Part shown: in pieces, positions 3,834-60,480 of the stretch
Layout: each line of letters opens with the position of its first letter
Position numbering within the stretch: position 1 is the stretch's first letter
Assembly (NCBI GenBank): GCA_964570585.1
Contig: CAZMYR010000003.1
Span: forward strand, 22,749 to 86,748
Direction of reading: 5' to 3'
DNA length: 64,000 nt
Origin: an uncultured Planctomycetia bacterium
Lineage (GTDB): Bacteria > Omnitrophota > Gorgyraeia > JABMRG01 > JAFGKX01
Made by a program: the position numbers and the translations under genes
The notes under the pieces: generated by a model
Databases searched by the model: none
What the model was told of the DNA's origin: nothing
The model's input: the letters and a program-made list of their open reading frames with translations, nothing else

Positions 3834-3911
3834 TATCCTCCTAGTTTTGCTTGCGTTTATTGGGTTTGTAGGGTTTATAGGGTTATAACTCAATAAACTC
3901 TATAAACTCAA

Positions 3912-4376
3912 CTATACTCTCCTTCGCTTCGGGGCTCTACATCCATTATGTGGTATAGGCGTAATATCTTTAATGGTACTTATCTGTAATCCAGCCGCCT
4001 GCATTGCCCGTATTGCTGATTCTCTGCCTGCCCCCGGTCCCTTTACGCAAATCTCTACCTTTTTTAGTCCTAACCCTTTTGCTTTTTCAGCAGCTGCACT
4101 TGCAGCTCTTTGAGCAGCGAACGGTGTAGATTTTTTCGAACCTTTAAAACCGATGTTGCCGCTGGAACACCAACAAATTGTATTGCCATTTTTATCTGTT
4201 ACAGTAATAATTGTATTGTTAAAGGTCGCTAAGATATATACTATACCATCATGGATGAAAACTTTTTGTTTCGACTTTTTCTTTTCAGGTTTTGGTTCTT
4301 GTTTTGGTTCTTGTTTTGGTTCTTGTTTTGGTTCTTGTTTTGGTTCTTGTTTTGGTTTCTCTTCAGCTTTTACCAT
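3912..4376 (-). CDS. rpsK: 30S ribosomal protein S11 with N-terminal (KQEPx) tandem-repeat extension
   Basis: C-terminal 120 aa typical of S11; 15-bp unit repeated five times at the 5' end. Confidence 0.9.
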
Positions 4377-4384
4377 TTCTATAA

Positions 4385-4783
4385 TTACCCTTCCTTTCTG
4401 ATTTTCTGTTGTTTTTCTCTTTTTGCAACGCCAACTGTCTTTCTCGGGCCTTTCCGGGTGCGTGCATTTGTATTTGTTCGTTGCCCTCTTACTGGCAAAC
4501 CCCTTCTATGGCGCAATCCTCTATAAGTTCCTATGTCTATTAGCCTATTTATGTTCCCTGTAACCTCTCTTCTTAAATCGCCTTCTATCTTATAATTTTT
4601 TGTAATAAACCTAGAAATTTTTGCTACATCTTCTCCGGTAAGGTCCTTAGCCCTCATATCGGGATTTATGCCATTAGCTTTTAATATTTTATTTGAAACA
4701 GTTCTGCCAATCCCGTGAATATAAGTAAGTGCGATCTCTACCCTCTTCCCTTTTGGTATATCAACACCGCAAACTCTCGGCAT
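4385..4783 (-). CDS. rpsM: 30S ribosomal protein S13
   Basis: 132 aa, conserved S13 sequence. Confidence 0.95.
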
Positions 4784-4901
4784 CTTTTACTCCCGTCTTT
4801 TAATGGTTAGTTGTAAGTTATAAGTCGTAAGTTATAAGTTTTTTTCGGCCTTCAATTCGAATTTTAGCTTAAAACTTAAAACTTAAAACTTAAAACTTTT
4901 G

Positions 4902-5015
4902 TTATCCCTGTCTCTGTTTATGCTTCGGATTCCTGCATATAACTCTAACTACACCTTTGCGTTTTATAATCTTACATGAAGAACAAATTTTTTTAACCGA
5001 TGCTCTAACCTTCAT
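4902..5015 (-). CDS. rpmJ: 50S ribosomal protein L36 (not in ORF track, under 60 aa)
   Basis: hand translation gives [37 protein letters not shown]; classic L36 zinc ribbon, canonical position between rpsM and infA. Confidence 0.85.
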
Positions 5016-5017
5016 TT

Positions 5018-5233
5018 TTATCTCTCTCGATAAATAATCCGTCCCTTGGTAAGGTCATACGGTGAAAGTTCTAATTTTACTTTGTCCCCTGGTACTATTC
5101 TTATAAAATACATTCTCATCTTACCTGCAACATGTGCCAGGACCCTGTGTCCATTATCCAATTCTACTCTAAACATTGCGTTTGGCAATGCTTCTATAAT
5201 CGTGCCTTCTGTTTGAATTGCCTCTTCTTTCAT
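5018..5233 (-). CDS. infA: translation initiation factor IF-1
   Basis: 71 aa S1-like fold, strongly conserved. Confidence 0.95.
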
Positions 5234-5282
5234 TTTGAGTTATGGGTTATGAGTTCATAGTTCATAGACTACGAACTACGAA

Positions 5283-6032
5283 CTAATTAAATTCCGTCAA
5301 TATCCTGGGCCCCTCCTCTGTAACAGCAACAGTATGCTCAAAATGCGCTGAAAGTTTTCTATCAGCCGTAACAGCTGTCCAGCCGTCTTTAAGTATATCC
5401 ACTTTATAAGTTCCTATATTAATCATCGGCTCTATTGCCAATACCATCCCGGGTTTTAGCGCCGGGCCCATATGTGGTTGTCCAAAATTCGGTATTTGCG
5501 GATCCTCATGCAGGTTTGAACCTATACCGTGGCCAACAAATTCTCTTACGACGGAAAAAGCATTTAATTCTGCTTCGTCTTGAACAGCACACGATATATC
5601 AGAAAGTCTGTTATCAACGGTTGCCATTGCAATAGCTTTATAGAGGGCTCCTTTGGTCACATCCAGTAATCTTTTAGCCTCAGGAGAAATTTCTCCAACA
5701 CCTACAGTTATTGCGGCGTCTCCATAAAACCCATCCAGTTCAACCCCGGCATCAATGCTTATTATGTCGGCTTCTTTTAATCTTCGTGTACCCGGTATAC
5801 CATGTACTATTTCTTCATTTATCGAAGTGCATATATTTTTAGGGAATCCCCTATAACCATTAAAGGCGCACCTGCCTCCTAGTTTACTGATCAGTTCGGC
5901 TGCTCTTTTGTCCAGTTGTTCAGTAGTTACTCCCGGCGCTATCATGTCAGTGAGCATGGCTAATGTTTTCGCTACAATAATCCCCGCCTTATGCATCTTT
6001 TCTATTTCATCTTTTGATTTATAATGTATCAA
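5283..6032 (-). CDS. map: methionine aminopeptidase type I
   Basis: 249 aa with pita-bread fold metal ligands. Confidence 0.9.
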   Translation of the reverse strand: MIHYKSKDEIEKMHKAGIIVAKTLAMLTDMIAPGVTTEQLDKRAAELISKLGGRCAFNGYRGFPKNICTSINEEIVHGIPGTRRLKEADIISIDAGVELDGFYGDAAITVGVGEISPEAKRLLDVTKGALYKAIAMATVDNRLSDISCAVQDEAELNAFSVVREFVGHGIGSNLHEDPQIPNFGQPHMGPALKPGMVLAIEPMINIGTYKVDILKDGWTAVTADRKLSAHFEHTVAVTEEGPRILTEFN

Positions 6033-8062: not shown

Positions 8063-8162
8063 CTTTTTTTAGTACCGTTTACGGTTTCAAAGGGGTAAGT
8101 GTCCCCTAATTCATTCTTTGCTGGGGGGCATTTACCTCTTTGAAACTGTAAACGGTACTTTC

Positions 8163-9196: not shown

Positions 9197-9265
9197 GTTA
9201 GCCTCCAAAATTTACGAAAGTAAATTTTGTCCCGAACGATGCGACGAATAGGAGCATCGGAGGGA

Positions 9266-9622: not shown

Positions 9623-9701
9623 CTCAGTAATTTACCTCCGTACACTTACGTGTACGGTATCCTTTTCGTACATTCCCCGCACGTAAGTGCGGGGTCCGAT
9701 C

Positions 9702-10662: not shown

Positions 10663-10750
10663 ATGTTGGTGCCATGCACTGCGGTGCCACCCTACGTGGC
10701 AAAACTGTATATTTAAAAGGTAGGGTGGCACCGCAGTGCATGGCACCATT
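10663..10750. repeat. palindromic element family A, copy 1: 28-bp perfect arms TGGTGCCATGCACTGCGGTGCCACCCTAC around a 24-nt loop
   Basis: read directly; fills the rpsN-rpsH spacer; second copy at 13147-13234 has the loop inverted. Confidence 0.85.
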
Positions 10751-10752
10751 TC

Positions 10753-12179: not shown

Positions 12180-12214
12180 TCTCTCTCTACAAACTACGAA
12201 CTACCAACTACAAA

Positions 12215-12472
12215 CTATTTGATTACCTCTATTATGCGATAGCGTTTCCCTTTTGATAAAGGCCTGGTTGGCAGTATTTTAACCTTATCTCCAATCTTGG
12301 CAACATTTTTAGGGTCATGGGCCTTAACCTTACGTCTATGCTTTATAATCTTTTTATACAGTTTATGAGTAGTGAAATTCTCCAACCTTACCACTGCTGC
12401 TTTATTCATCTTATCACTTACTACTATGCCGATTTGAGATTTAAGCTTTTTCCTTTTTATCTGTTTTTGCAT
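12215..12472 (-). CDS. rpsQ: 30S ribosomal protein S17
   Basis: GIVVSDKMNKAAVV motif; 5' end overlaps rpmC by 32 nt, so true start may lie downstream. Confidence 0.85.
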   Translation of the reverse strand: MQKQIKRKKLKSQIGIVVSDKMNKAAVVRLENFTTHKLYKKIIKHRRKVKAHDPKNVAKIGDKVKILPTRPLSKGKRYRIIEVIK

Positions 12473-12656: not shown

Positions 12657-12722
12657 GTTTTATCTTCCTTTGTTTCTTACAACTTAAAACTTACGACTTA
12701 CAACTAACCGAGCGTAGCGAGG

Positions 12723-13139: not shown

Positions 13140-13146
13140 AATAAAC

Positions 13147-13234
13147 CCATGTTGGTGCCATGCACTGCGGTGCCACCCTACCTTTTAAATATACAGTTTT
13201 GCCACGTAGGGTGGCACCGCAGTGCATGGCACCA
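13147..13234. repeat. palindromic element family A, copy 2 (same arms as copy 1, loop reverse-complemented); occupies the whole rpsC-rplP spacer and abuts the rpsC stop codon
   Basis: read directly; arms identical to 10667-10748. Confidence 0.85.
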
Positions 13235-13931: not shown

Positions 13932-14366
13932 TTATTTTTTTCCTCCAGTCTTTACAGCTTTTTTTTCTTTTTTACCCTGTAACTTTTCAACTTTTTTAAC
14001 TTTTGGAACTTTTTTAACTGTTTTAGATACCGGCGTTAAGGTATCCAATTCAACAGTCAAATGACAGGACCTTTTTCTAATCATGGCTGCCATACCCATA
14101 GCTCGGGCTTTATATCTCTTTAGCATAGGTCCGCCGTCCGCAAATATCCTGCAAATATATAAATCATTTTCATCAACGTTAGGCAGCCTTTTCGCGTTAG
14201 CTACTGCAGAGTAGACAGCTTTATAAATATAAGATGCTGCTTTCTTATTCGTATTTTCCAATATGGAGAGGGCTACAGGCACAGTCTTGTTCCTAATTAA
14301 AGGCAGAAGGAGCCTTAGTTTCTTCGGAGAAATCCTCAAATATTTTATTTTTGCTTTCGCTATCAT
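13932..14366 (-). CDS. rplV: 50S ribosomal protein L22 with K-rich C-terminal extension
   Basis: conserved core plus about 30 aa tail. Confidence 0.9.
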   Translation of the reverse strand: MIAKAKIKYLRISPKKLRLLLPLIRNKTVPVALSILENTNKKAASYIYKAVYSAVANAKRLPNVDENDLYICRIFADGGPMLKRYKARAMGMAAMIRKRSCHLTVELDTLTPVSKTVKKVPKVKKVEKLQGKKEKKAVKTGGKK

Positions 14367-14459
14367 ATTAGGATTGCTTCGGTTGCCTTCGGCAACCTCG
14401 CAATAAATTCGGACTTATCACTTACGTCGTCCTACGGACTCCGTAAGTGATGTCCTCAT

Positions 14460-15895: not shown

Positions 15896-15967
15896 CCCGC
15901 ACCTTTTATTTATTCATCCCGGACCTTTTTAATATTACTTTTGAATATTTTAAAGGTGCGGGATTCA
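15893..15967. repeat. palindromic element family D, copy 1 (ATCCCGCACCTTT arms); its arms contain the rplD stop codon and the rplW start codon
   Basis: read directly; second copy at 57671-57748. Confidence 0.8.
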
Positions 15968-17308: not shown

Positions 17309-17332
17309 GTTTCCTCGATTTAGCTGGTTTCG

Positions 17333-17398
17333 TATCTAGTATCTAGTATCTAGTATCTAGTATCTAGTATCTAGTATTTCCGAGATACGATTCACGAG
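17333..17398. repeat. (TATCTAG)x6 tandem array followed by (GAGATACGA)x2, forming complementary arrays; rplC-rpsJ spacer
   Basis: read directly. Confidence 0.85.
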
Positions 17399-17423
17399 AT
17401 ACGAACAACGAAGCGCTTATCTC

Positions 17424-17726
17424 CTAGCGTATATCCACATCCACGCCTGCTGGCAAATCCAATCTCTTCAGAGCATCTATTGTCTTTGCAGTCGGTTCAA
17501 TAATGCTTAATAACCTTTTATGAACTTTTATCTGAAACTGCTCTCTAGATCTTTTGTCAATATGGGGAGACCTTAAAACAGTATAATCTTCCCGTTTAGT
17601 AGGCAATGGTATAGGGCCAGAAACCTTAGCCCCTGTCTTCTTGGCAGTTTCCACAATCTCTGCTGCAGATTGATCAAGAATCCTATGGTCATATGCTCTT
17701 AATCTAATCTGTATCTGCTGCTGCAT
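17424..17726 (-). CDS. rpsJ: 30S ribosomal protein S10
   Basis: 100 aa, conserved. Confidence 0.95.
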
Positions 17727-17735: not shown

Positions 17736-18935
17736 CTACTCTATTATCTCCGTAACAACTCCTGCACCTACCGTCCTGCCGCCTTCTCTTATAGCAAACC
17801 TTAATTCTTTTTCCATGGCGATAGGCGTTATAAGAGATCCTTCTAAGGTTACGTTGTCACCCGGCATTACCATCTCAGTGCCTTCCGGAAGTTTTATTGT
17901 CCCGGTAACATCGGTGGTTCTAAAATAGAATTGGGGACGATAGCCGTTGAAGAAGGGGGTATGCCTTCCGCCTTCTTCTTTGCTTAACACATAAACCTTT
18001 GCTTTAAATTTAGTATGCGGGGTTATGGAACCTGGCTTGGCTAAGACCATACCTCTTTCTAGGTCTTTCTTTTCTACGCCACGAAGAAGTATTCCTACGT
18101 TGTCTCCGGCTTGACCTTCATCCAAGAGCTTCCTAAACATCTCAACCCCTGTGACTACACTCTTTTTGGGGGCAGGACGCATACCTACTATCTCTATATC
18201 TTCGTTTATCTTGACTTTTCCTCTTTCTATTCTACCTGTTGCTACTGTGCCTCTTCCGGTTATGGAGAAGACATCTTCTATAGCCAAAAGGAAGGGCTTA
18301 TCAATGTCTCTTTTTGGAGTAGGGATGTATTCATCCACTGCCTTTAAAAGCTCCATGATTGGCTTGGTGGCTTCATTACCAGGGTCTCCCTCTGCTTCCA
18401 TGGCTTTTAAAGCACTTCCTCTTATAATGGGGATTTTGTCTCCCGGAAATTCATATTTTGAAAGAAGTTCCCGGACCTCAAGCTCTACTAAATCTAGGAG
18501 CTCAGGGTCATCAACCATATCTACCTTGTTTAAGAATACAACTATATATGGGACGTTTACCTGGCGGGCTAAGAGGATATGCTCTCTGGTCTGAGGCATA
18601 GGTCCATCAGCTGCTGATACCACCAAAATGGCGCCGTCAGCTTGAGCTGCTCCGGTAATCATGTTCTTAATGTAATCGGCATGCCCAGGGCAGTCTATGT
18701 GGGCATAATGGCGGTTTTCGGTTTCATATTCAACGTGGGCAATGGCTATTGTTATTCCTCTTTCTTTTTCCTCTGGGGCATTGTCTATTGAGTCAAAAGT
18801 CCTGACATCAGCCATACCTTTTTTATTTAAGACCATAGTTATAGCCGACGTAAGACAGGTCTTGCCATGGTCTACGTGGCCTATGGTACCGATGTTTACG
18901 TGTGGTTTACTCCTTACATATTTTTCCTTTGCCAT
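17736..18935 (-). CDS. tuf: elongation factor Tu, copy 1 (start trimmed to MAKEK; track used an upstream TTG)
   Basis: GHVDHGKT motif; identical to copy 2 except the last codons. Confidence 0.95.
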
Positions 18936-18966
18936 TTTCTCCTCCTCTGTAGCGTGAGTTTTGCCC

Positions 18967-18987
18967 CTTTGCTTTCCCAAACGGTGC
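18967..18987 (-). promoter_or_regulatory. family C leader motif (sense GCACCGTTTGGGAAAGCAAAG) in the fusA-tuf spacer
   Basis: same 21-mer found at 34812-34832, 37408-37428 and 37462-37482; partial versions at 29951-29976 and 31739-31770. Confidence 0.5.
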
Positions 18988-21053: not shown

Positions 21054-21106
21054 ATGTAATTAACTTTTTTAACTTTTTAAACTTTTAGAACCTTTTAAAC
21101 TGTTTT

Positions 21107-22008: not shown

Positions 22009-22036
22009 GTTACTAACTCCTTGAAATACTTGTTCG

Positions 22037-22078
22037 TTATTGCGTTATTGCGTATTGCGACGTACGACGTACGACGAA
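22037..22078. repeat. (TTATTGCG)n then (ACGTACG)x3 tandem arrays in the rpsL-rpoC spacer; reverse complement of the array at 54476-54538
   Basis: read directly. Confidence 0.8.
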
Positions 22079-26169: not shown

Positions 26170-26186
26170 GGGGTAACCTATTCCAA

Positions 26187-26221: not shown

Positions 26222-26225
26222 TTTA

Positions 26226-33352: not shown

Positions 33353-33356
33353 TTGA

Positions 33357-34780: not shown

Positions 34781-34811
34781 TTTCTCCTCCTCTGTAGCGT
34801 GAGTTTTGCCC

Positions 34812-37885: not shown

Positions 37886-38667
37886 ATGTCCGTTAATTTC
37901 TCTAGAAATCCAAACACCTCTTTTGTATCCGTCGCATAATATTCAGCGTTTGAAACTGTATTTTTTCCTCCCACAAAGATTGTAATGCCTTTCTTTTTCA
38001 ATCTCTTAAAAGCGCTTTCATCGGTCTCGTCATCGCCTAGATAAATAGGTAAAATCCTCCTACGCTTATTCTTTTTTCTTTTTAATAAATAATCGACGAG
38101 GCTGCCCTTGTCCCATTTAATTGGAGGGCGCACTTCGATTACTTTCTTACCGTTGGTTATTTTTACTTTTTTACTTTCAATATACGGAGTAAGTGTAGTA
38201 ATAACTGAATGTTTTAGTTTTTTTATTTTTGCTCCTTTTACCATACGGTAATGCACGCTTAAGGTAAGCCCTTTGTCTTCAATAAAGGCGCCAGGAATTT
38301 TTCTGCATGCTGTTTTCAGTTTGGAAAAAAGTGGTGCCAGCCGCGAGTTTTTTTTAAAAAACTTGTGCCTGGCACCACTTTTTCCATTTTCTATCTCCAA
38401 CCCATGATTACCAGCTAAAGCTATGCCTTTTATTTTTATCTTTTGTTTTAATTGCTTAATTGAACGACCGCTTATTATCGCTATAGAGAATTTAGGATTT
38501 TTCATTAATTTAAGCAGGATAGATTTTGATTCTTTCGGTAAATTCGCTAATTCGGGCTTTTTAACAATTGGGGCAAGGGTGCCGTCATAATCCAGGAAAA
38601 GGTATATGTGGGGAGTTCTATTTATTTCTGCAAAGATTTTTCTGGAGTGTCGGAAGAGATACTTCAT
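37870..38667 (-). CDS. otsB: trehalose-6-phosphate phosphatase (HAD family)
   Basis: DYDGTL motif, 265 aa. Confidence 0.8.
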   Translation of the reverse strand: MKYLFRHSRKIFAEINRTPHIYLFLDYDGTLAPIVKKPELANLPKESKSILLKLMKNPKFSIAIISGRSIKQLKQKIKIKGIALAGNHGLEIENGKSGARHKFFKKNSRLAPLFSKLKTACRKIPGAFIEDKGLTLSVHYRMVKGAKIKKLKHSVITTLTPYIESKKVKITNGKKVIEVRPPIKWDKGSLVDYLLKRKKNKRRRILPIYLGDDETDESAFKRLKKKGITIFVGGKNTVSNAEYYATDTKEVFGFLEKLTDINPKH

Positions 38668-43000: not shown

Positions 43001-45207
43001 CTTCTCTTCTTCTTCTGCCAGGCGATTAAAAGCGGGCTGGCGATAAATATGGTTGAGTATATACCAGAGATAAAACCTACTATAAGACAAAATGCAAAAT
43101 TGTGTAATACCTCACCACCAAGAAAAAATAATGCAAATGCAGTAAATAGTGTAGTAAGGGTAGTAAGGACCGTCCTGCCTAAGGTCTGATTTACGCTCAT
43201 ATTTATTAATTCTATAAAGTTTATCTTGCGAAGCAAGCGCATATTTTCTCTTATCCTGTCATAGATAACCACTGTGTCATTTATAGAATAACCGGCAATG
43301 GTCAAAAGTGCCGCAACTATAGTTAAATCAAACTCCTTGCCTGTTATTGCCATTGCCCCTATCGTAACCAATACGTCATGAAATAAAGCTACTACTCCTG
43401 CCAATCCATATTCCCAGTGCTTAAATCTTATGCCAATGTAAATCAGAATGCCGGTCAGACCTAAAAGCAATGCCTTAATTGCATTCTTTCTTAAAAGCCT
43501 GCCTACTGATGGTCCAACCTTCTCCACCCTCATCATTTCAGCCTGGTTGTCTTTAAAATCTTGCTTGAAGGTCTTTTTTATCTTATCATATGTATCGGTG
43601 TATGTCCTTATGAGCACATCGCGATTATCTGCAAATTGCTGTATAGAGGCGCTGGCAAGGTCTACCCTTGCCAAACTATCACGAACCATAGCAATATCAA
43701 CCGGTTTTTGAAACCTGAATTGCTGCAGGGTGCCACCGGTAAAATCCACGCCAAAGTTTTTCTCGCCTCTCATCGTAAAAACAAAAATTCCTACAGCAAT
43801 AACCACAGCCGATAAAATATAACAAATCCTTCTTTTTGCGACAAAATTTATACGAGTGCCGCTTATTAAACTGAGCATGCGGAGCCTGCCAAATTTAGGA
43901 GAGCGACTAAGTACATTAAATATAGTTCTGGTAACAACAAGGGCAGTAAATAAACTGGCCAGAATACCTATGGTAAGTGTCATAGCAAATCCGCGAATAG
44001 GACCTGTCCCGAATTGAAGCAGCATAATAGCTGCTATGATTGTAGTTACATTTGAATCTAAAATTGCGCTGAAGGCCTTAGAATATCCGATTGAAATGGC
44101 GCTCCGGACAGTCTTTCCTGTCTTAAGCTCTTCTCGAATTCTCTCATATATTAAAACATTGGCATCTACTGCCATGCCAATAGTAAGTATCAAACCTGCA
44201 ATGCCCGGCAAAGTTAAAGTAAAGTGAAAATAGCCCATTACCCCGCCTATGATTATGATATTTAATAAAAGGGCGATGTTTGCTATTATCCCTGAAAGCA
44301 TATAATATATGAGCATGAAGACTATGACTAAAATAAAACCTGTCAAAATAGCGCACAGGCCTGCATTTACCGAGTCCCGTCCTAATAACGGACCTACTGT
44401 CCTTTCTTCCTCTATATATACTGGCGCAGGAAGAGCACCGGCGCGCAATACAATTGCTAAATCGTTTGCCTCATCCGGACTAAACCTCCCTTCAATTATC
44501 GCTTCTCCGGAAGGTATCTCTTCCTTTATATTAGGGGCAGATTTTACAACGCCATCAAGCACTATAGCGAGTCGGCGTCCAACATTGTCTCTGGTAACGC
44601 GGGCAAATTTTCTCGCGCCTTCTCTATTGAAAGATAGACCTACTACAGGTTGATTAAATTGGGACTGTTGAAACTTAACTGTAGCGTCTTTTAAATCAGC
44701 TCCGGCAACTTCGGCTTTTTCTTCAAGAAGGATTGGCTGGCCTTTTTCGTCTTCTTTCAATTCATAGCCTTCGGGAACATTGTTTTCCAGGGCGCTCTTT
44801 AATTTCTCAGGGTCTGCTGAAACCAGTTTAAACTCTAAAAGTGCAGTTTGGCCTACCAGCTCAATAGCCCTATCTCTATCCGTTACTCCTGGTAGCTGTA
44901 CTACTATTTCATCCTTGCCCTGTCTTTGTATAGCAACCTCTTTAACCCCAAATTGGTCTATACGATTCCTTATTATCTCTAATGCTACATCCGGCGCATC
45001 CTTTGCCTCTTTCTCAGATAACTTTGCTGTATCAACCTTAAGCACAAGGTACATTCCACCCTGGAGGTCAAGCCCTAAATTTATCCTTCCTTCCCGAATT
45101 ACTTTACCTGCTTTATCTTTTATGGTAAACGGGGGAAATAAACTCCACAGGGATAAAATAATAACAACTAATATAAGCAAAACCTTCCATTTAAGGTTCT
45201 TCTGCAT
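42997..45207 (-). CDS. secDF: fused protein translocase subunits SecD-SecF
   Basis: 736 aa, 12 TM, periplasmic domain. Confidence 0.9.
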   Translation of the reverse strand: MQKNLKWKVLLILVVIILSLWSLFPPFTIKDKAGKVIREGRINLGLDLQGGMYLVLKVDTAKLSEKEAKDAPDVALEIIRNRIDQFGVKEVAIQRQGKDEIVVQLPGVTDRDRAIELVGQTALLEFKLVSADPEKLKSALENNVPEGYELKEDEKGQPILLEEKAEVAGADLKDATVKFQQSQFNQPVVGLSFNREGARKFARVTRDNVGRRLAIVLDGVVKSAPNIKEEIPSGEAIIEGRFSPDEANDLAIVLRAGALPAPVYIEEERTVGPLLGRDSVNAGLCAILTGFILVIVFMLIYYMLSGIIANIALLLNIIIIGGVMGYFHFTLTLPGIAGLILTIGMAVDANVLIYERIREELKTGKTVRSAISIGYSKAFSAILDSNVTTIIAAIMLLQFGTGPIRGFAMTLTIGILASLFTALVVTRTIFNVLSRSPKFGRLRMLSLISGTRINFVAKRRICYILSAVVIAVGIFVFTMRGEKNFGVDFTGGTLQQFRFQKPVDIAMVRDSLARVDLASASIQQFADNRDVLIRTYTDTYDKIKKTFKQDFKDNQAEMMRVEKVGPSVGRLLRKNAIKALLLGLTGILIYIGIRFKHWEYGLAGVVALFHDVLVTIGAMAITGKEFDLTIVAALLTIAGYSINDTVVIYDRIRENMRLLRKINFIELINMSVNQTLGRTVLTTLTTLFTAFALFFLGGEVLHNFAFCLIVGFISGIYSTIFIASPLLIAWQKKKRR

Positions 45208-45229
45208 CTATTTACTCTCCCAGAGGTAA

Positions 45230-45274
45230 TTGGGACGTCCTGCAGGGGGGGCACCCTGCAGGACGTCCCCAACC
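45230..45274. repeat. palindromic element family B, copy 1 (GGGACGTCCTGCAGGG-N6-CCCTGCAGGACGTCCC)
   Basis: read directly; inverted copy at 51973-52018. Confidence 0.85.
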
Positions 45275-45290
45275 AGAAAGAAAAATCTGG

Positions 45291-45626: not shown

Positions 45627-45649
45627 AAAAAACTCCTTCCGTTATTGGG

Positions 45650-47900
<2,251 letters not shown>

Positions 47901-49814: not shown

Positions 49815-49868
49815 CGTTTAGCGTTTAGCGGATAGCGTTTAGCCGATGGGAAAACTATTCGCTATACG
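49815..49868. repeat. (CGTTTAGCG)-type tandem array with complementary CGCTAAA array; queH-ruvB spacer
   Basis: read directly. Confidence 0.7.
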
Positions 49869-50906
49869 CTAAAATAGCTCTTTCTGCTTCTCTCTGGTTT
49901 TCTTAAGATGTTGATATGCCAGGTCAGTAATTTTTCTGCCGCGTGGAGTGCGTTTTAAAAAGCCGCTTTTAAGCAAAAATGGCTCCACCACATCAACTAT
50001 TGTATCGGATTCTTCATTTAAAGAAGCGGCCAATGACTCTATGCCTACAGGCCCGCCTTTATAATAATCGATTATGGCAAAAAGAACCTTTCTATCTATA
50101 GTATCCAGGCCAAACGAATCGATGCCCTGGGAATTCAAGGCCTCATCCGCTATTTCTTTAGTAATGGCACCGGATTTTTTTACCTGGGAGAAGTCTCTTA
50201 CCCGGCGAAGCAGGCGATTGGCAACACGGGGAGTGCCTCTTGAGCGCCTGGCTATTTCCATCGCTCCTTCTTTGTCAATCTTAATATTTAAAATTTTCAC
50301 AGAACGATTTATAATCTTCACCAGCTCTTCCGGCTGGTAAAAATCTAAATGAAAAAACATGCCAAACCTGCCCCGTAAAGGGGCGGAAAGTAATCCGGAA
50401 CGGGTAGTAGCTCCTATAAGGGTGAAATGCTTTAGATTAAATTTTATTGTTTTTGCATACGGGCCTTTATCTATAACAAAATCTATCTGGAAATTTTCCA
50501 TAGCCGGATAAAGAAATTCCTCTACAACTTTAGATAAACGGTGCACCTCATCTATAAACAAGACATCCCCTTTTTCTAAATTAGTAAGTATGCCTATTAA
50601 ATCCCCTGCTCTTTCTATTGCCGGGCCTGATGTAGCGGTTATTTTAGAACCCATCTCGTGGGCAATGATATGAGCTAAACTAGTCTTACCTAATCCGGGA
50701 GGCCCTGCAAAAAGCATGTGCTCAAGAGGTTCTCGTCTTTCCTTTGCAGCCTGCAAGGATATAAGCAGATTTTCTACAGTCTTTTTCTGCCCTACAAAGT
50801 CGCTTATTTTAGTAGGACGCAAAGAAAGATTTAATATCTTATCCTCATCAGTCTCCTGCTGAAGGATTATCTTCTCTCTTTTCGGCTTTGGGGTTTTTTC
50901 CTTCAT
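49869..50906 (-). CDS. ruvB: Holliday junction branch migration ATPase RuvB
   Basis: Walker A GPPGLGKT, 345 aa. Confidence 0.95.
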
Positions 50907-51893: not shown

Positions 51894-51966
51894 TGAGGGT
51901 AAAAGGGGACGGTTCTATTTTTTACATTTTTCCTGGTGTCCCCCTCAGGGGAAAAAATTCCTTCTT

Positions 51967-52086
51967 CTAGCATGGTTGGGGACGTCCTGCAGGGAGGCAA
52001 CCCTGCAGGACGTCCCCACTACTTACATCAGTCTCCTGCTGAAGGATTATCTTCTCTCTTTTCGGCTTTGGGGTTTTGTTTTTCAT
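51967..52086 (-). pseudogene. duplicated 5' fragment of ruvB (first 17 codons, 52 bp identical to 50846-50897) fused in frame to codons from palindrome B; 39-aa ORF
   Basis: read directly; [20 protein letters not shown] versus Ruv[21 protein letters not shown]. Confidence 0.6.
51973..52018. repeat. palindromic element family B, copy 2 (inverted relative to copy 1)
   Basis: read directly. Confidence 0.85.
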
Positions 52087-52098
52087 ATTTTTTAATGG

Positions 52099-52671: not shown

Positions 52672-53217
52672 TTATTCTAAATAACCTAGATATTTATCAT
52701 AGGGACTTTCGATAGTATAGTTACGTGTTTGTATAACGCACTCACCTACTTTTTTTTCGTCTTCTGCAGTATTGTCAGCTTTCCGAAAATGTATTGCCCA
52801 GGTACCGGGAGTAGTAGTATTATCCACCCAATATTCGCATACATCTCTAGGAAGAGTTATATTTAATTCATGCTCAACTTCCGCATTGCCATGAGCGCTA
52901 CTAGTATAAACAAAATTATCAGCATCGGCCGCAGTCCAGTCAAAATAAGCACCAATTTTAAAATTATAATACTTCTCTCCTGCAAGAATTAGCTGTATGG
53001 TATTCGGTACTTCCTTCAATTCTGTCCTTATACGAAATGTTTGAAATCGGGGATACATTATTGTAGCAAGAACACCGATAATAACTACGACTATTAATAA
53101 TTCTATTAAGGTAAGCCCCGTTACAAATTTACGTTTGCTATACTTGAAAATATAATTTTTAAATATATTTTGTATGCTTTGGTTAATTTGTAACGGGGTA
53201 AAGGAGTTCCTTTTCAT
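52672..53217 (-). CDS. type IV pilin / pseudopilin-like protein, paralog of the gene at 52099-52659
   Basis: KRKFVTG-LTLIELLIV signal; shared leader KRNSFTPLQINQSIQ. Confidence 0.75.
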   Translation of the reverse strand: MKRNSFTPLQINQSIQNIFKNYIFKYSKRKFVTGLTLIELLIVVVIIGVLATIMYPRFQTFRIRTELKEVPNTIQLILAGEKYYNFKIGAYFDWTAADADNFVYTSSAHGNAEVEHELNITLPRDVCEYWVDNTTTPGTWAIHFRKADNTAEDEKKVGECVIQTRNYTIESPYDKYLGYLE

Positions 53218-53849
53218 CTTATTCCCCTTTTTGTCTTTTTCTGGTTATAAACCTCGTTCAATAGTTGTTCTGTGGTCTCTATATCAGGATTTTGTTCAAG
53301 AGCACTCTTTACCATCCGGTCTGCCTCGGTCTTTTTATATTGAAGCTGGCTTAAAACTTCTAATGCCTCTTCTTCTATATCTTTCCTTAAAGCTATCTCA
53401 TCGGGTTTAAATCTATCTTTTATAAGACCGAACCTGCCAACTTTACCCTGAAGCTTTGCAATTATCTGCTTTGCCCTTTGCTCTCCTATGCCGGGTAGGC
53501 ATCTGAGGTGTGAGGTGTCTGCCGATTCTATAGCTTGAATAATCATTGATATCGGTTCACTCAATGCCTTAACAGCAGCCTTAGGCCCTACGCCAGAAAC
53601 GGTTATAAATTTTTCGAAGAATTCCTTTTCTATCTGATTTGTAAATCCGATCAACACCGGAGTGCTCCTTGCCGGGTCATTTGCAAGATAATGGAAAGTT
53701 ATCAGTTCTATCTCATTGCCAATCCTGGCATCTTTTAAATCGTTCAATACCGTAAGCGGAACCAGAATCTCATATCCTATGCTATTTATTTCGATAAGTA
53801 AACTGGCTTCATTCTTCCTGATTAGCTTGCCTTTGATTCTGGATATCAT
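53214..53849 (-). CDS. ruvA: Holliday junction DNA helicase RuvA
   Basis: 211 aa, OB domain plus HhH motifs; 4-nt overlap with the downstream pilin-like gene. Confidence 0.9.
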   Translation of the reverse strand: MISRIKGKLIRKNEASLLIEINSIGYEILVPLTVLNDLKDARIGNEIELITFHYLANDPARSTPVLIGFTNQIEKEFFEKFITVSGVGPKAAVKALSEPISMIIQAIESADTSHLRCLPGIGEQRAKQIIAKLQGKVGRFGLIKDRFKPDEIALRKDIEEEALEVLSQLQYKKTEADRMVKSALEQNPDIETTEQLLNEVYNQKKTKRGIR

Positions 53850-53859
53850 AAGTATAGGA

Positions 53860-54000
53860 ACGTTTCCAAAATCAAAGAGGCAAATGTAGGAACGTTTCCA
53901 AAATCAAAGAGGCAAATGTCCCCATAAAGGGGACACTTGCCCCTTAGATTTCGGAAACGTTCCTGGGGACACTTGCCCCTTAGATTTCGGAAACGTTCCT
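53860..54000. repeat. composite direct and inverted repeats (AGGAACGTTTCCAAAATCAAAGAGGCAAATGT x2; GGGGACACTTGCCCCTTAGATTTCGGAAACGTTCCT x2) in the ruvC-ruvA spacer
   Basis: read directly. Confidence 0.8.
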
Positions 54001-54470
54001 TTCTGTTTATATATATGTGTCAAACACAAAGCCAGAGCATCAGTTATATCTGCCGGTCCCTTAGAAGGTTTTAGATTCAAAAGGCCTTCTACTGTACGCT
54101 GAACCTGCTGCTTCGAGGCATTGCCATTGCCAGTTACAGCTTGCTTTACTGTCTTAGCCGGATAATTAACCAGCTCTAAATTTTCTAAACCGCAAGCTAA
54201 AACAATAATCCCTCTGGCATGACCCATTAGAATTGCTGTCATCGGATGCCTGTAATGAGAATAGAGTTTTTCTAGAATGCAAACTTTGGGTCTGGTCTCT
54301 TTGATTAAATTTAAAACTTGGGAATAGATGATATTAAGACGGATGCGTAGATTTTGTTTACCGGATGTTTTTATTGTGCCTGCTTCTACAATTTTTATAT
54401 TCCCTCTATTTTGCACAACTACGCCATATCCGGTTACATTCAGGCCTGGATCTATTCCTAGAATTCGCAT
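53904..54470 (-). CDS. ruvC: crossover junction endodeoxyribonuclease RuvC (start trimmed to MRILGIDPG)
   Basis: conserved RuvC N-terminus; track extension translates the tandem repeat. Confidence 0.9.
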   Translation of the reverse strand: MRILGIDPGLNVTGYGVVVQNRGNIKIVEAGTIKTSGKQNLRIRLNIIYSQVLNLIKETRPKVCILEKLYSHYRHPMTAILMGHARGIIVLACGLENLELVNYPAKTVKQAVTGNGNASKQQVQRTVEGLLNLKPSKGPADITDALALCLTHIYKQKGTFPKSKGQVSPGTFPKSKGQVSPLWGHLPL

Positions 54471-54475: not shown

Positions 54476-54538
54476 TCGTCGTGCGTCGTGCGTTCTTCGT
54501 CGTACGTCGTACGTCGTACGTCGTAATACGCAATACAT
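54476..54538. repeat. (CGTCGTRCG)n tandem array then TAATACGCAATAC; inverted partner of 22037-22078
   Basis: read directly. Confidence 0.8.
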
Positions 54539-57670: not shown

Positions 57671-57748
57671 TTCATCCCGCACCTTCCTTCATTCCCGCTT
57701 ACCTTCTTAATATTGCAAATTTGAATACAAAGAAGGTGCGGGATTCAT
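57671..57748. repeat. palindromic element family D, copy 2; right arm overlaps the stop codon of ORF 57745-58035
   Basis: read directly. Confidence 0.8.
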
Positions 57749-58035
57749 ATATTCATCTCCACTTTCTTTCTTAATCTATGTAAATCCTCCACTATCTTAT
57801 CAATGTTGACTACGCGTTTTATCTTAGGGAGCCCAAAGGCGACCATCCTCACCCTCGCCGGGCCTATCACACTTTTATTTATTGTGTCTTTATCAATCGC
57901 TGTTTGTTTTTGCCAGGCTTGTGTAATCACCGGAGTTACTGCACTAAAACCAGCAGCAAGCGCTGGTAACGCCTTTCCGTTTGACAAAACTTGAGATAAA
58001 ATAATTATAACGATGATAAATTTAATCAGTCTCAT
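57745..58035 (-). CDS. small secreted hypothetical protein (signal peptide plus about 70 aa)
   Basis: N-terminal hydrophobic signal MRLIKFIIVIIILSQVLS. Confidence 0.4.
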   Translation of the reverse strand: MRLIKFIIVIIILSQVLSNGKALPALAAGFSAVTPVITQAWQKQTAIDKDTINKSVIGPARVRMVAFGLPKIKRVVNIDKIVEDLHRLRKKVEMNI

Positions 58036-58366
58036 TTTTTGCTCCTTTCTTTAATTTCTTTAATTCTTCTGCAAGGTTAGGAAGCGCTTTTTTTAAAAGT
58101 TCACCTATTCTTTGTTCTAACTCTTCTTGCGAGTGCACCAAATTGCCTGATATCTCCATTTTCCTAACCGCCTCTACTATCGCCTGTATTATTTCTGTTC
58201 GAGAAAGTTTTTTTCCGGTTGAAAACAAGGCATCTTTGCTAATTTTGTCTATAAAATCTAACTGCTCCCTTGCAAGAAATGCAATAACCCTGCCTACATG
58301 TTTAGCATTATGGCTAATCTGTGCAAACCGAGAGGGGCGTTTATGATTTATGTGTGTGTTTGTCAT
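58022..58366 (-). CDS. hypothetical protein (114 aa from ATG at 58366 behind GGAGG; His-rich N-terminus, possible HTH)
   Basis: ORF with good RBS; no recognised domain. Confidence 0.45.
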   Translation of the reverse strand: MTNTHINHKRPSRFAQISHNAKHVGRVIAFLAREQLDFIDKISKDALFSTGKKLSRTEIIQAIVEAVRKMEISGNLVHSQEELEQRIGELLKKALPNLAEELKKLKKGAKNETD

Positions 58367-58388
58367 TTTAGATACCTCCAATAAAAAA

Positions 58389-58422
58389 AAGCCCTATTCT
58401 TACCTAAGAAAGAATAGGGCTT
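58389..58422 (-). terminator. intrinsic terminator: 13-bp perfect stem AAGCCCTATTCTT/AAGAATAGGGCTT plus U8, placed inside the 5' leader of ORF 58022-58366
   Basis: read directly; upstream segment 58436-58445 can pair with the 5' arm as an antiterminator. Confidence 0.6.
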
Positions 58423-58553
58423 TTAAACTTCCGCTCTATTCTTTCGGCAGCCCGACTCTCCCAGACTCGTGGGACTCGTAGCTTTGCGTCCCATTCTTAC
58501 GAATGGTTTGCCTTTATCGAGAATTTCCTTTAAAAGAGCTTTTTGTTTCTACA

Positions 58554-58585
58554 TTAAGTATGCCCAATATTTTTAAAAAAGTCAA
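58554..58585 (-). promoter_or_regulatory. putative promoter TTGACT-17 nt-CATACT for the leader and small ORFs
   Basis: good -35, weak -10. Confidence 0.3.
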
Positions 58586-58677
58586 GAGGTGAGAAGATAT
58601 TTTTTTATTTTTGTACTTTTGTCACTTTTTACATTTGTGAATCGCCAACGAAAGTCCCATACCAATTCTCGCAGAGA

Positions 58678-58906
58678 CGCATCGTTAGGTTTTGTGTGCT
58701 TTGCCTCCGCTTGCCGCTTGCTCAGGTCTGTGGCAATTCTCGCAGGGACGCAAAAAATCCCCAGCGTGGATTTTTTGCTCTGTCCTCGGCCTCGCTCTTT
58801 TTGTCCCGAAATTTCGGGATAAGAAACCATGCCCGCTCGGCCTGCGCAAGCCCTGCTCGAATTGCCACAGGACCTTCGCTTTTGTTGACAGTCGCTACGG
58901 CAAAGC
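58678..58906. repeat. GC-rich element with nested perfect inverted repeats (outer 18 bp GGTTTTGTGTGCTTTGCC; inner 12 bp; internal 11-bp hairpin); non-coding
   Basis: read directly; overlapping ORFs in several frames on both strands. Confidence 0.6.
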
Positions 58907-59212
58907 ACACAAAACCTTTAGACTCCGCCCTGTTCAAATTGTTATAGGAGCTTCTGCTTTAAATCCAAACAAAATATTATCCTACAAAAGTAAAAACTAA
59001 AGGGGTGGACGCAGAGAGGAAAATAGGCGCTCGGGGTATCGTGGAGCGAGACATTAGAAATTTTTTACCAAATGTCTTTTTAGGATTTATGGCGAGTGAG
59101 ACGACGGAACTGACTCGCTACTTTCTAGCTAAAGAATTCCGTCAAGCGAACGAGCCATAAGTTCAAAAAGACGGCAAAAAATTTCAGTCTCGCGAAACAA
59201 TACCCTGAGCGC

Positions 59213-60373
59213 CTATTTCCCCATGCCGATATTCTGGGCTCGCTGGAAGACTTTTCCTTCGGTTTGGATAGATGGGGCGATTATCAGCTTTGTTTTCTGC
59301 ATTTCTTTTATATTGCGGGCGCCGACATTGCCCATAGAAGTGGTGAGTGCACCCATTAAATTCTGAGTTCCATCATCCAATCTTGCAGGGCCGAATAATA
59401 TCTCTTTTAATGTGCCGGTCGTTCCCACCTTTATTCTGGTGCCACGTGGCAGGTTTGCGTGAGGAGTAGCCATACCCCAGTGATAACCTCCGCCAGGGGC
59501 TTCTTTTGCTCTGGCAAAAGCAGAACCTACCATAACAGCATCGGCACCGGAGGCAAATGCCTTGCATATATCCCCACCGGTACTCATTCCACCGTCTGTT
59601 ATAATGGGGATGTATTTTTTCTTCTTCTTAAAATAATTGTTTCTTGCTGCAACACAATCGACAGTAGCAGTCACTTGCGGAAGACCAATTCCTAAAACTC
59701 CTCTTGTGGTGCAGGCAGCGCCAGGGCCGATTCCTACCAAAAGGCCGTTTATTCCTGTTTCCATAAGCTCAAGCGTAGTTTTGTAGCTGCAGGTATTTCC
59801 GACAATTACAGGGATTTTCATGTTTTGGCAGAATTTTTTAAAATTTAGCACCTTGTATTCTTTGGATATATGTTTTACGGTTGTAACTGTTGACTGGACC
59901 ACAAATATATCACATCCGGCATCCTGGGCTATTTTGCCGAACCTCTCCGCTCTTTGCGGTATGGCACTTACTACTGCCGGAACTCCTTTAGATTTAATTT
60001 CCTTTATCCTTTTTACTATTAACTTCTCTTTTATTGGCTTCGTATATATGCTTTGGACTAGTTCAGTCGCTTCCTGAGGCGCGGCTTTAGCTATTTTCCT
60101 CAAAACAATATCTGGATTTTCATATCTTGTCTGGATGCCCTCTAAATTTAATACAGCAAAACCTCCGAGTTTGCCAAAGGCAATTGCAAATCGGACATTA
60201 ACCACTCCGTCCATCGCTGCTGCGATTATAGGGACATGAAATTTGTGTTTGTCTATCTTCCAGGATGTATCAACTTCATTTGGGTTTATGGTTACATCAC
60301 CGGGAACAAGTGCTACTTCATCAAAGCCATAACAACGTCTTGCGGTTCTATCTTTTCCTATATATAATCCCAT
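59213..60373 (-). CDS. IMP dehydrogenase/GMP reductase family protein lacking the CBS pair
   Basis: 386 aa TIM barrel with conserved IMPDH motifs. Confidence 0.8.
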   Translation of the reverse strand: MGLYIGKDRTARRCYGFDEVALVPGDVTINPNEVDTSWKIDKHKFHVPIIAAAMDGVVNVRFAIAFGKLGGFAVLNLEGIQTRYENPDIVLRKIAKAAPQEATELVQSIYTKPIKEKLIVKRIKEIKSKGVPAVVSAIPQRAERFGKIAQDAGCDIFVVQSTVTTVKHISKEYKVLNFKKFCQNMKIPVIVGNTCSYKTTLELMETGINGLLVGIGPGAACTTRGVLGIGLPQVTATVDCVAARNNYFKKKKKYIPIITDGGMSTGGDICKAFASGADAVMVGSAFARAKEAPGGGYHWGMATPHANLPRGTRIKVGTTGTLKEILFGPARLDDGTQNLMGALTTSMGNVGARNIKEMQKTKLIIAPSIQTEGKVFQRAQNIGMGK

Positions 60374-60388
60374 CTGCTTCTCCTTTGC

Positions 60389-60480
60389 AGTTCTAAAAGT
60401 TCTAAAGGTTCTAAAGGTTCTAAAAGTTCTAAAAGTTCTGAACTTTTGGAACTTTTTAACTTTTTAAACTTTTTTAACTG
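60389..60480. repeat. paired complementary tandem arrays (GTTCTAAARG)n / (AACTTTTT)n upstream of the IMPDH-family gene
   Basis: same family as 46776-46876. Confidence 0.9.

Follow-up and report, generated by a model that had tools for sequence, protein, structure and literature searches.

Head-to-tail arrays of heptamers that face their own complement across an intergenic spacer are a known but little-studied kind of bacterial repeat. In Xanthomonas, 183–186 arrays per genome are built on a GGGAATC unit that has fixed and variable positions; they typically contain about four units, 89–93% of them are intergenic, and they overlap the upstream stop codon or lie at an average of 28 nucleotides (nt) from it (Rehm et al. 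2015, PMC4692102). Between 70 and 75 convergent pairs per genome place arrays on opposite strands, with the potential to form stem-loops or cruciforms, and the arrays are mostly transcribed, differ between sister species in the genes next to which they lie and are unlinked to mobile elements (PMC4692102). Here we describe arrays of comparable design in the intercistronic spacers of a 64,000-nt stretch of DNA (the window) from an uncultured bacterium of Candidatus Omnitrophota (GenBank assembly GCA_964570585.1, contig CAZMYR010000003.1, positions 22,749 to 86,748). A preliminary description of the window knew of no described family with this architecture, a claim that the inverted heptamer-array pairs of Xanthomonas contradict. 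What is new is the AT-rich, multi-family make-up of the 7–9-nt units of the window, their position inside core operons and the occurrence of the architecture in Omnitrophota and Acidobacteriota. We take these arrays for inverted microsatellites that slippage has grown and that, if they act, do so as generic stem-loops of the RNA, a reading to which we assign a probability of about 0.5.

Four other systems offer points of comparison. In the 5′ untranslated region (5′-UTR) of hmw1A and hmw2A of Haemophilus influenzae, (ATCTTTC)n forms one arm of a long hairpin in which ten repeats are paired; cleavage by RNase III alters expression, and the number of repeats changes only when hairpin, transcription and RNase III are all in place (Rapun-Araiz et al. 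2025, PMC12721329). This is the sole case with experimental evidence on how such a structure works. The short tandemly repeated repetitive (STRR) elements, with units CCCCAGT, TTGGTCA and CAACAGT, are known only from heterocystous cyanobacteria. Vioque is said to have described in 1997 an STRR in the gene for RNase P RNA of heterocystous strains, and STRRs lengthen a helix of that RNA. The hupS–asr0689 spacer of Nostoc holds TTGTCAG arrays together with a CTGAC-type complement (PMC2408588). Direct repeats of TAACTGA in marine Beggiatoaceae, some cyanobacteria and Bacteroidetes are intergenic, including within ribosomal-protein operons, lie near start codons and, in the forward orientation, supply stops in all frames; a post-transcriptional role has been proposed for these repeats, of which 169 sets are direct and a single one is an indirect repeat, and which by prediction lack structure (MacGregor 2015, PMC4679880). 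Finally, repetitive extragenic palindromic (REP) sequences lie downstream of coding regions, carry GTAG/CGTC tags and are plausible stabilisers of the upstream mRNA (PMC3733652).

Arrays between stop codons and ribosome-binding sites

Using Tandem Repeats Finder (TRF) with a uniform filter (period 6–11, at least 2.5 copies), we called 35 arrays in the window, compared with a mean of 1.8 and a maximum of 6 in 20 shuffles. Intergenic DNA, which makes up 7.1% of the window, holds 21 of the 35, or 4.6 per kb; for coding DNA the figure is 0.24 per kb (binomial p = 7e-16). The density is thus about 20-fold higher between genes than within them, and array DNA (~930 nt) fills roughly one fifth of the intergenic total. 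At the 14 spacers named in the preliminary description, TRF recovers 7–9-nt units in every case, with periods of 7, 8 and 9 and 2.6–7.0 copies across the loci. The TRF consensus units also bear out the earlier claim that unit families have common cores across loci: the arrays at 46776, 60389 and 21062 belong together, as do those at 22035 and 45640 and those at 4805, 12673 and 32957. In all, at least nine unit families occur within 64 kb, with no core that is constant. The units are AT-rich and without G-tracts, and include some with fixed and variable positions, such as TTNGTAG and RGTTCTAAA. They are contiguous, with no intervening spacers, and on this ground a CRISPR array was rejected as a candidate.

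Measured from the upstream stop codon, the element begins at −26 to +17 nt in 13 of the 14 loci; it ends 0–26 nt ahead of the next start codon and leaves the Shine–Dalgarno (SD) sequence free. The stop codon is often part of the first unit (TAG of map, TAG of rpsQ and TAA of tgt). The proposed tie to intercistronic spacers is therefore sound, as arrays run from the stop codon to just short of the SD sequence and are almost confined to spacers. We also considered that heptamers containing TAA, TAG or TGA might serve as stops in three frames, a hypothesis that was dropped because it is inseparable from AT-richness and the stops occur in both orientations.

Almost all genes of the window are on the minus strand. 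For its SecY, every one of the best named matches belongs to Candidatus Omnitrophota. A look-up of its L16 protein by exact sequence gave no hit. In the order of transcription, the first block is the S10–spc–alpha ribosomal-protein cluster, from rpsJ (17424–17726) to rplQ (1536–2159). The window also contains tuf, fusA, rpsG and rpsL; rpoC, rpoB, rplL, rplJ, rplA, rplK, nusG and secE (32752–32937); and tRNA-Trp, a second tuf and tRNA-Thr. Pfam matches identify recG, rpmB, otsBA, mscS, recJ, secDF, yajC, tgt and queA as well as queH, ruvB, ruvA, ruvC, yebC, an EF-G paralogue, an IMPDH-family gene and groEL. For comparison we used relatives within Omnitrophota (L081, L082, L083, L165, L166 and L167) and ribosomal operons of Terriglobales/Acidobacteriota (L003–L080). 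The preliminary description had placed arrays within ribosomal-protein operons, in which spacers are normally tiny, and this is what we find: from rpsJ to rplQ, 13 of 29 spacers are at least 40 nt long, and the median spacer is 20 nt, versus 5.5 nt in the array-free L167.

Arrays of the same families also enter genes. One, with 9-nt units of the AACTTTTTA family (13980–14025, minus strand; TRF and translation), lies within the 3′ end of rplV, is in frame and gives L22 a lysine-rich tail, which shows that unit slippage also acts in coding DNA where the period is a multiple of three. A heptamer array of the GTAAGTT family, AAGTTGT ×4.9 (47080–47113, minus strand; TRF and Pfam), is a rare case within the queA coding sequence. 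We also observed a perfect in-frame 12-nt repeat of 5.8 copies at 4289–4357, which gives (KPKQEP)n at the N terminus of S11.

Pairing and folding of the arrays

Fold stability was expressed as a z-score relative to dinucleotide shuffles for both strands, antisense being the + strand at minus-strand genes. The preliminary description envisaged two complementary arrays in each spacer that fold into a long hairpin in several registers. Two complementary arrays are present at six of the 14 loci and weakly so at four, and the remaining four hold single arrays; long multi-register hairpins likewise form at many loci and not at those four. Clear pairs (3845, 4805, 5236, 32955, 46776 and 60389) have better-strand z-scores of −4.6 to −7.3, with no dinucleotide shuffle as stable, weak or partial pairs (17333, 22037, 49815 and 54476) range from −0.4 to −2.4, and single arrays (12180, 12665, 21057 and 45640) form no hairpin on the transcribed strand (sense z +1.0 to +1.9). 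Including a further pair at 37746–37886, seven loci have better-strand z-scores of −4.6 to −8.3. Arm lengths are correlated over 207 pairs (r = 0.36, p = 1e-7). Each arm has been homogenised separately, because one mismatch recurs in every unit. An Rfam search at the gathering score returned zero matches at the array loci of the window or in six related loci.

The longest pair lies in the queA-to-tgt spacer (46776–46876; this and all array loci below are on the minus strand). Here AGTTCTAAA ×6.6 faces GAACTTTTT ×4.6 across a near-zero loop (z −4.9 sense, −7.3 antisense). Each unit has an identical T·T mismatch, plus G·T on the + strand, and the T·T mismatch in every unit argues that the arms are not recent fold-back copies of one another. 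An inverted pair of the same family at 60389–60485, AGTTCTAAA ×5.7 facing AACTTTTTA ×5.1 (z −2.7 sense, −6.7 antisense), makes up essentially the entire predicted 5′-UTR of the IMPDH-family gene (59213–60373). Directly 5′ of it is a perfect sigma-70 consensus, TTGACA-16-TATAAT (60493–60520, minus strand; 12/12 match), which would place the hairpin at the extreme 5′ end of the predicted transcript. The element thus folds in the interval between promoter consensus and SD sequence. The elements at 46776 and 60389 have only their arrays in common.

The rpmJ-to-rpsM spacer contains an inverted 7-nt pair (4805–4898) of GTAAGTT/ATAAGTY ×4.6 and CTTAAAA ×4.4, the latter with 100% identical copies, around a 30-nt loop (z −3.0 sense, −4.6 antisense). 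In the tRNA-Trp/secE leader (32957–33025), sense GTAAGTN/ATAAGTN arrays are followed by ACTTACN arrays to form an inverted heptamer pair (z −5.3 sense, −5.9 antisense), with a small ordinary hairpin on each side; the open reading frame (ORF) of 61 amino acids (aa) at 33024–33209 had no match in a Pfam search and is probably not a gene. Between rpsK and rpsD, an inverted 9-nt pair (3855–3911; GTTTATAGG ×3.3 and AACTCAATA ×2.8 on the + strand) begins 0 nt past the rpsK stop and ends 20 nt ahead of the rpsD start, with z −5.5 on the + strand and −1.3 as sense RNA. The inverted heptamer arrays of the map-to-infA spacer (5236–5285) read, in sense, TAGTTCG ×2 and then CTATGAAC-type units, the first unit containing the TAG stop codon of map; this is the only locus at which the sense RNA clearly folds better (z −6.5 versus −2.0 for antisense).

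The large inverted pair at 37746–37886, which was absent from the earlier list, consists of AAATCCT ×4.4 facing GTTTTGA ×3.6 and GTTTAGG ×4.7. It lies between the convergent rpmB (+) and otsB (−), covers the otsB stop and folds strongly on both strands (z −6.0 on the − strand, −8.3 on the + strand). A U-run follows on the − strand, giving a terminator-like context, and a consensus terminator scan did not call this locus because its stem is AT-rich. We rejected intrinsic terminators as a candidate for the elements as a whole, as the stems are AT-rich and within operons, with a U-run at 37746–37886 only.

Among the weaker loci, the rpsJ-to-rplC spacer (17332–17411) has GTATCTA ×6.6, with 100% identical copies, and then CGAGATACGAACAA ×2.2; its arms are unequal and partly complementary (z −0.5 sense, −1.5 antisense), and the same spacer is 6–10 nt in L082 and L083. 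Two unlike adjacent arrays, CGTTATTG ×3.2 and CGACGTA ×2.7, occupy the rpoC-to-rpsL spacer (22035–22076), where pairing is solely via G-T on the + strand and is non-significant (z +1.4 sense, −0.4 antisense). CGTTTAG ×4.1 and a short partial complement fill the ruvB-to-queH spacer (49815–49866; z −1.8 sense, −2.1 antisense). The yebC-to-ruvC spacer (54477–54538; z −1.2 sense, −2.4 antisense) holds one array, CGTCGTA ×7.0, which is self-complementary via a CGTACG core only and has no separate partner array; its reading frame and Pfam match put the start of ruvC at 54470.

Single heptamer arrays without a complementary partner occur in the rpsQ-to-rplN spacer (12187–12217, CTACAAA ×4.4) and the rplP-to-rpmC spacer (12673–12705, sense GTAAGTN ×4.3; z +1.9 sense, +0.8 antisense). 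The former reads TAG TTTG TAG TTGG TAG TTCG TAG in sense, opening with the rpsQ stop, and has a minimum free energy of 0 (z +1.0). The rpsG-to-fusA spacer (21062–21105) holds a single 9-nt array, AACTTTTTA ×4.9, of the family found at 46836 and 60441, and forms no hairpin (z +1.2 sense, +0.5 antisense). In the tgt-to-yajC spacer (45640–45675), a single 8-nt array, CGTTATWG ×4.5 (z +1.3 sense, −2.0 antisense), covers the last 26 nt of tgt and provides its TAA stop; this family is also present at 22035 and in L081.

Turnover, strand preference and other features of the window

Across four Omnitrophota genomes (SecY identity 96%, 86% and 85%), elements have been gained and lost, and orthologous spacers carry unlike units. 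Flanking coding DNA is 95–99% identical between the window and L081 (96% SecY identity), whereas several spacers are sharply different. The secY-to-adk spacer is 20 nt in the window, and in L081 it consists of the 20 nt and a clean hairpin insert of ~70 nt; the map-to-infA spacers hold unrelated hairpins. The rpmJ-to-rpsM hairpins are orthologous, with conserved loop and 3′ flank, and their arms consist of AAGTTTT ×4 (perfect) with a 14-nt duplication in the window and of GCGTTATW in L081. Indels of whole 7-nt units set apart the arrays of two metagenome contigs with 97–98% identity (L132 and L135). The perfect copies of GTATCTA ×6.6 and CTTAAAA ×4.4 point to recent expansion, and the different units or lack of an insert at the same spacers of a near-identical relative show that turnover by unit slippage is very fast.

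A lack of conservation in related genomes, which the preliminary description had named among the grounds for refutation, is largely what we see at the level of both sequence and position. Hairpins at orthologous spacers cannot be aligned from one genome to the next, and multi-register arrays deprive pair counts of meaning. Arrays are few in L166 and absent from L167. Four families (TAAGTT/AACTTA, GTTCRTAG/CTAYGAAC, AGTTCTAAA/GAACTTTTT and CGTTATWG) recur in the window and at non-orthologous spacers of L081 and L165. The core ACTTACG/CGTAAGT is also found in the non-tandem hairpins at 14367–14459 and 9623–9701, which suggests that ordinary hairpins may seed arrays.

The ribosomal operons of Terriglobales have the same inverted-array architecture at a higher density, up to about 1.8 arrays per kb among the matches listed. 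These loci are the Acidobacteriota entries among the matches listed in the S3 search, not a targeted sample, and the best identities of the distant relatives from the homologue scans are 59% and 71% among the matches listed. Spacer pairs such as GTTTCAAA/TTGAAACC, AGCTTCT/GCTAGAA and GTCGTTG/AACGACC fold at −38 to −57 kcal/mol, and heptamer or octamer arrays are exemplified by L032 (4517–4610, 6914–7013 and 8425–8483). Of 177 pairs, 147 are rich in pyrimidines in the 5′ arm and in purines in the 3′ arm, a polarity that is strand-symmetric. A literature search for such repeats in Omnitrophota or Acidobacteriota found no paper. As a separate observation, NAGCTGA/GAACTGA-type arrays abut the L16 start codon in Terriglobales, often without a canonical SD sequence.

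In the preliminary description, the sense RNA at 5236–5282 was noted to pair through G-U wobbles where the antisense would have A-C mismatches, and this was taken as a sign of function in the transcribed orientation. The asymmetry is present at that locus and reversed at nearly all other paired loci. Of the 14 array spacers in the window, 12 fold better as antisense (Wilcoxon p = 0.008), because the mismatch that recurs in each unit is G·T on the + strand and A·C on the mRNA strand. Sense folds better in L081–L083 (19 versus 7), and L165, L166 and L001 are mixed. In Terriglobales the sense RNA is modestly better (51 versus 30, p = 0.002; G-U pairs 232 versus 169), in a test run assuming operon orientation, ORF-based orientation calls being unreliable in high-GC loci. 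Counts of G-U versus A-C in ungapped arm alignments are non-significant in Omnitrophota (11 versus 16) and weakly unequal in Acidobacteriota (95 versus 72, p = 0.09). Counts did not support an invariably 5′ position of the GT-rich arm in Omnitrophota (4 versus 6). Because trends among genomes are opposite or mixed, wobble asymmetry is no consistent evidence of RNA-level function, and the argument that had been drawn from it falls.

In the ribosomal and rpoBC operons, the remaining long spacers are all stable non-tandem hairpins (z −2.2 to −10). Non-tandem hairpin spacers, identified by fold z, lie at 15896–15964, 14367–14459, 13140–13234, 10680–10752 and 9623–9701, and at 26170–26225, 29931–29981, 31729–31774, 45208–45290 and 51894–52098. 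Tandem-array hairpins are thus one route to a general, always-folded state of long spacers. The non-tandem hairpins comprise several repeated families and make up a REP-like population: GGTGCCATGCACTGCGGTGCCACCCTAC has two copies, with the loop inverted between them; GCACCGTTTGG...CCAAACGGTGC and GGGGACGTCCTGCAGGG are two further families; and ATCCCGCACCTT...AAGGTGCGGG also occurs at 57346 and in L082.

Larger palindromes are present as well. A palindromic element at 53855–54000, similar to a miniature inverted-repeat transposable element (MITE), has a 32-nt left arm and a 36-nt right arm that are each tandemly duplicated with 100% identity (−109 kcal/mol, z −17.9), so that both arms are duplicated as in the short-unit arrays, with a larger unit. 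It encodes the last ~36 codons of RuvC (GTFPKSKGQVSP ×2), past the end of the Pfam RuvC domain. A related element at 8063–8162, GTTTCAAAGAGG...CCCCTTTGAAAC, is nested at the centre of a GTACCGTTTAC/GTAAACGGTAC hairpin and is missing from L081 (compare 824–844); an ACCGT direct repeat borders the indel, which would fit an insertion that duplicated 5 bp as well as a slippage deletion. The rplR-to-rpsE (9209–9265) and rpsD-to-rpoA (3131–3206) spacers have one structured motif in common, TCCYTCC-stem-TCCTWTTCGTC-stem-GTTYGGGACAA, the stems of which have compensatory changes (GATGC/GCATC versus AGTGC/GCACT); it could be a small conserved RNA element.

Several further observations concern the genes of the window. 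With only 3 differences in 1,245 nt, the two tuf copies (17736–18980 and 33581–34825) imply that gene conversion is ongoing. The tuf/tRNA-Trp spacer (33353–33580) is without a listed ORF of at least 60 aa; read by eye, it apparently encodes a zinc-ribbon, L33-like peptide of ~50 aa (...CPECKNR...), in which case rpmG is located here. A c-di-GMP-I-GGC riboswitch aptamer (58442–58521, minus strand; Rfam RF03167, 72 bits, E = 4e-15) has two small genes downstream, 58022–58381 and 57745–58035, both without a Pfam match. The products of recG (35159–37276), recJ (41270–43090), ruvB (49869–50906), ruvA (53214–53849) and ruvC (53904–54470) process branched DNA or Holliday junctions, and the presence of all five genes within 64 kb is probably coincidental, though notable in a palindrome-rich genome.

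Explanations and comparison with known systems

In the reading favoured here, the arrays are intergenic microsatellites of 7–9-nt units that expand and contract by replication slippage; in this lineage an array is often followed by its own reverse complement, which turns the spacer into a long imperfect stem-loop with several registers. The elements would be co-transcribed with their operons, one of them as a whole 5′-UTR, and could act as generic stem-loops of which the specific sequence is irrelevant, offering double-stranded targets to RNase III and barriers to 3′ exonucleases. A folded spacer may also shield naked AU-rich RNA from Rho and single-strand RNases, and a closed stem may bring the stop codon close to the next ribosome-binding site. 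This last effect would explain why insertions are tolerated in tightly coupled ribosomal-protein operons, in which unfolded ones would stay short. There is good support for a mutational origin combined with filtering in favour of inserts that fold on themselves. A positive role in regulation is plausible, though unproven, and a role at the RNA level, in processing or stability, is a reasonable hypothesis, for which the RNase III-cut hairpin of hmw is a precedent from experiment.

Several findings weigh against the stem-loop reading. At 10 of 11 paired loci the antisense strand is the more stable relative to dinucleotide shuffles, and selection on mRNA structure predicts otherwise. The sense RNA has z above −2 at the spacers at 3835, 17309, 22009, 49815 and 54471, and the four single arrays without any fold indicate that hairpin formation is not the whole story. 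Presence and absence differ between near-identical genomes, so no given spacer needs its element, and neutral tolerance fits as well. Furthermore, in-place slippage alone leaves unexplained the unit families common to non-orthologous spacers. Mobility may contribute to the spread of these families, although the anatomy of the elements does not support it.

The main rival, which we regard as possible, is that the arrays are non-adaptive by-products of slippage-prone replication or repair, with selection purging them from coding DNA and from spacers in which they do not fold. It would account for the variation in presence and units at the same spacer between genomes with 95–99% identical genes, for the few or no arrays in L166 and L167 (spacers of 2–25 nt), for the lack of a consistent strand preference and for array families in coding DNA where the frame allows (13980) and occasionally where it does not (47080); the Xanthomonas repeats are likewise unconserved between species. 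However, arrays this dense in those operons of two phyla that are most compact and most highly expressed call for strong tolerance at the least, and the matched arm lengths, the strong Terriglobales polarity (147 of 177 pairs), the modest sense-strand G-U excess there and the folding of all long spacers do not follow from it. Miniature mobile palindromes of the REP/REPIN or MITE type, copied by a hairpin transposase such as the REP-associated tyrosine transposase (RAYT) of the IS200/IS605 kind, with the tandem units being secondary, are an unlikely source. They would explain the recurrence of unit families at several loci of the window and at non-orthologous spacers of relatives, and the clean indel at secY-to-adk in L081; other palindromic elements apparently insert at hairpin centres (8063–8162, with its ACCGT direct repeat) or are duplicated (53855–54000), and GTAG or CGTC, the REP superfamily tags (PMC3733652), occurs within units. 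Yet there is no constant core, no terminal inverted repeat besides the arrays and no target-site duplication at the secY-to-adk indel; together with the fact that 46776 and 60389 have only arrays in common, this led us to reject MITEs. The existence of at least nine unit families in 64 kb, the in-place expansion of arms in unit-sized steps and the absence of a transposase among the scanned genes of the 64-kb window also speak against mobility, and Rehm et al. saw no association with mobile elements in Xanthomonas (PMC4692102).

The conserved and variable positions of units such as TTNGTAG and RGTTCTAAA, and their proximity to start and stop codons, would suit iterated sites for a sequence-specific RNA- or DNA-binding protein, for example, a translational regulator acting near start codons, as proposed for TAACTGA in Beggiatoaceae. 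Sense units near starts are also alike in the window (TAACTTA), Terriglobales (NAGCTGA/GAACTGA) and Beggiatoa (TAACTGA). We nevertheless consider this very unlikely, given the many unrelated units in one 64-kb window, their wholesale replacement between close relatives, the absence of TAACTGA arrays from the window and the burial of sites in a stem that the paired form would entail. It is hardly likely at all that the AT-rich imperfect palindromes act at the DNA level, as cruciforms or single-stranded hairpins affecting supercoiling, replication or recombination. The + strand, which is not the transcribed sense strand, folds better at most loci of the window, as mRNA function does not predict, and the near-zero loops at 46776 and 60389 are what true DNA palindromes would have; however, G-T wobbles add little to the stability of DNA hairpins, the strand bias is reversed in the closest relative and the exact placement from stop codon to SD sequence points to constraints from translation signals rather than DNA topology. 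An artefact of assembly or sequencing in low-complexity metagenome regions, for which nothing speaks except the metagenomic origin of the sequences, is effectively refuted: the same architecture appears in independent NCBI, JGI and ENA assemblies, the separately sourced L083 and L084 have 100% identity over 20.8 kb, repeat-bearing spacers included, and flanking genes are intact and in frame.

A further proposal goes beyond generic stem-loops, and we rate it as rather unlikely. In at least two phyla, transcription and RNase III might drive the coupled expansion and contraction of both arms, much as one arm is driven at the hmw locus of Haemophilus, a self-sustaining RNA/DNA system that would provide rapidly tunable intercistronic punctuation. 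If so, this punctuation would set the stability of mRNA segments and the stoichiometry of cistrons in core operons, replacing tight translational coupling, and its signatures would be the matched arms, the Terriglobales polarity, the two-arm duplication at 53855–54000 and the hairpins in all long spacers.

Few transcription units of bacteria are as compact and as conserved as the ribosomal-protein operons, and it is unusual for a third to half of their spacers to be occupied by very fast-evolving hairpins of 50–130 nt. The independent and denser occurrence in Terriglobales suggests a general, under-described punctuation of operon mRNAs or a general rule on which insertions are tolerated. In practical terms, the loci mark differences at the level of strains and give rise to errors in gene calling for metagenome-assembled genomes, as ORFs run into arrays and arrays provide stop codons.

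As a predicted 5′-UTR hairpin directly downstream of a perfect promoter consensus, the pair at 60389–60485 would occupy the position of the hmw array. In Haemophilus, the right arm is formed by G-rich non-repeat sequence rather than by a complementary array, and the system there is a single locus type at a phase-variable adhesin, whereas the window has dozens per 64 kb in housekeeping operons, flanked by genes for ribosomal proteins and by rpoC, tgt, queA, ruvB, ruvC and the IMPDH-family gene. STRRs resemble the window in having intergenic tandem heptamers of several families, with an array and its complement possible in one spacer; they differ in unit sequence and host phylum, and we found no description for STRRs of systematic placement from stop codon to SD sequence in ribosomal operons. 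The TAACTGA repeats of Beggiatoaceae are likewise intergenic heptamer arrays within ribosomal-protein operons, unlike those of the window in having a single unit and nearly all direct repeats; a scan of the window for TAACTGATAACTGA with up to 2 mismatches gave no match.

T7 and malEFG furnish examples of intercistronic hairpins that are RNase III targets or stabilise mRNA. The window elements are similar to such T7-type hairpins and to REP, BIME and REPIN sequences in being extragenic palindromes between co-directional or convergent genes, and the functional model invoked is the same. REP copies are near-identical, 20–40 bp long, tagged by GTAG/CGTC and associated with a RAYT transposase, whereas the elements here have tandem units and no constant sequence; GTAG in TTCGTAG and TTTGTAG units and CGTC in CGTCGTA lie inside the repeats and are not end tags.

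The Xanthomonas arrays are also close in design. Both systems have head-to-tail units of ~7 nt that are intergenic, near the stop codon, arranged in convergent pairs and unconserved between close genomes, and the window has seven clear pairs (including 37746), four weak pairs and four loci with single arrays. The window differs in its phylum, in the location of its elements within ribosomal-protein and rpoBC operons and in having at least nine AT-rich families of 7, 8 and 9 nt, in contrast to one G-rich family with G-quadruplex potential. Because the units here are AT-rich and lack G-tracts, a G-quadruplex explanation is inapplicable in the window, and we argue that the common denominator of the heptamer repeats of Xanthomonas, cyanobacteria (STRR), Beggiatoa (TAACTGA) and Haemophilus (hmw) and of those described here is the stem-loop together with slippage, rather than a G-quadruplex or a specific motif.

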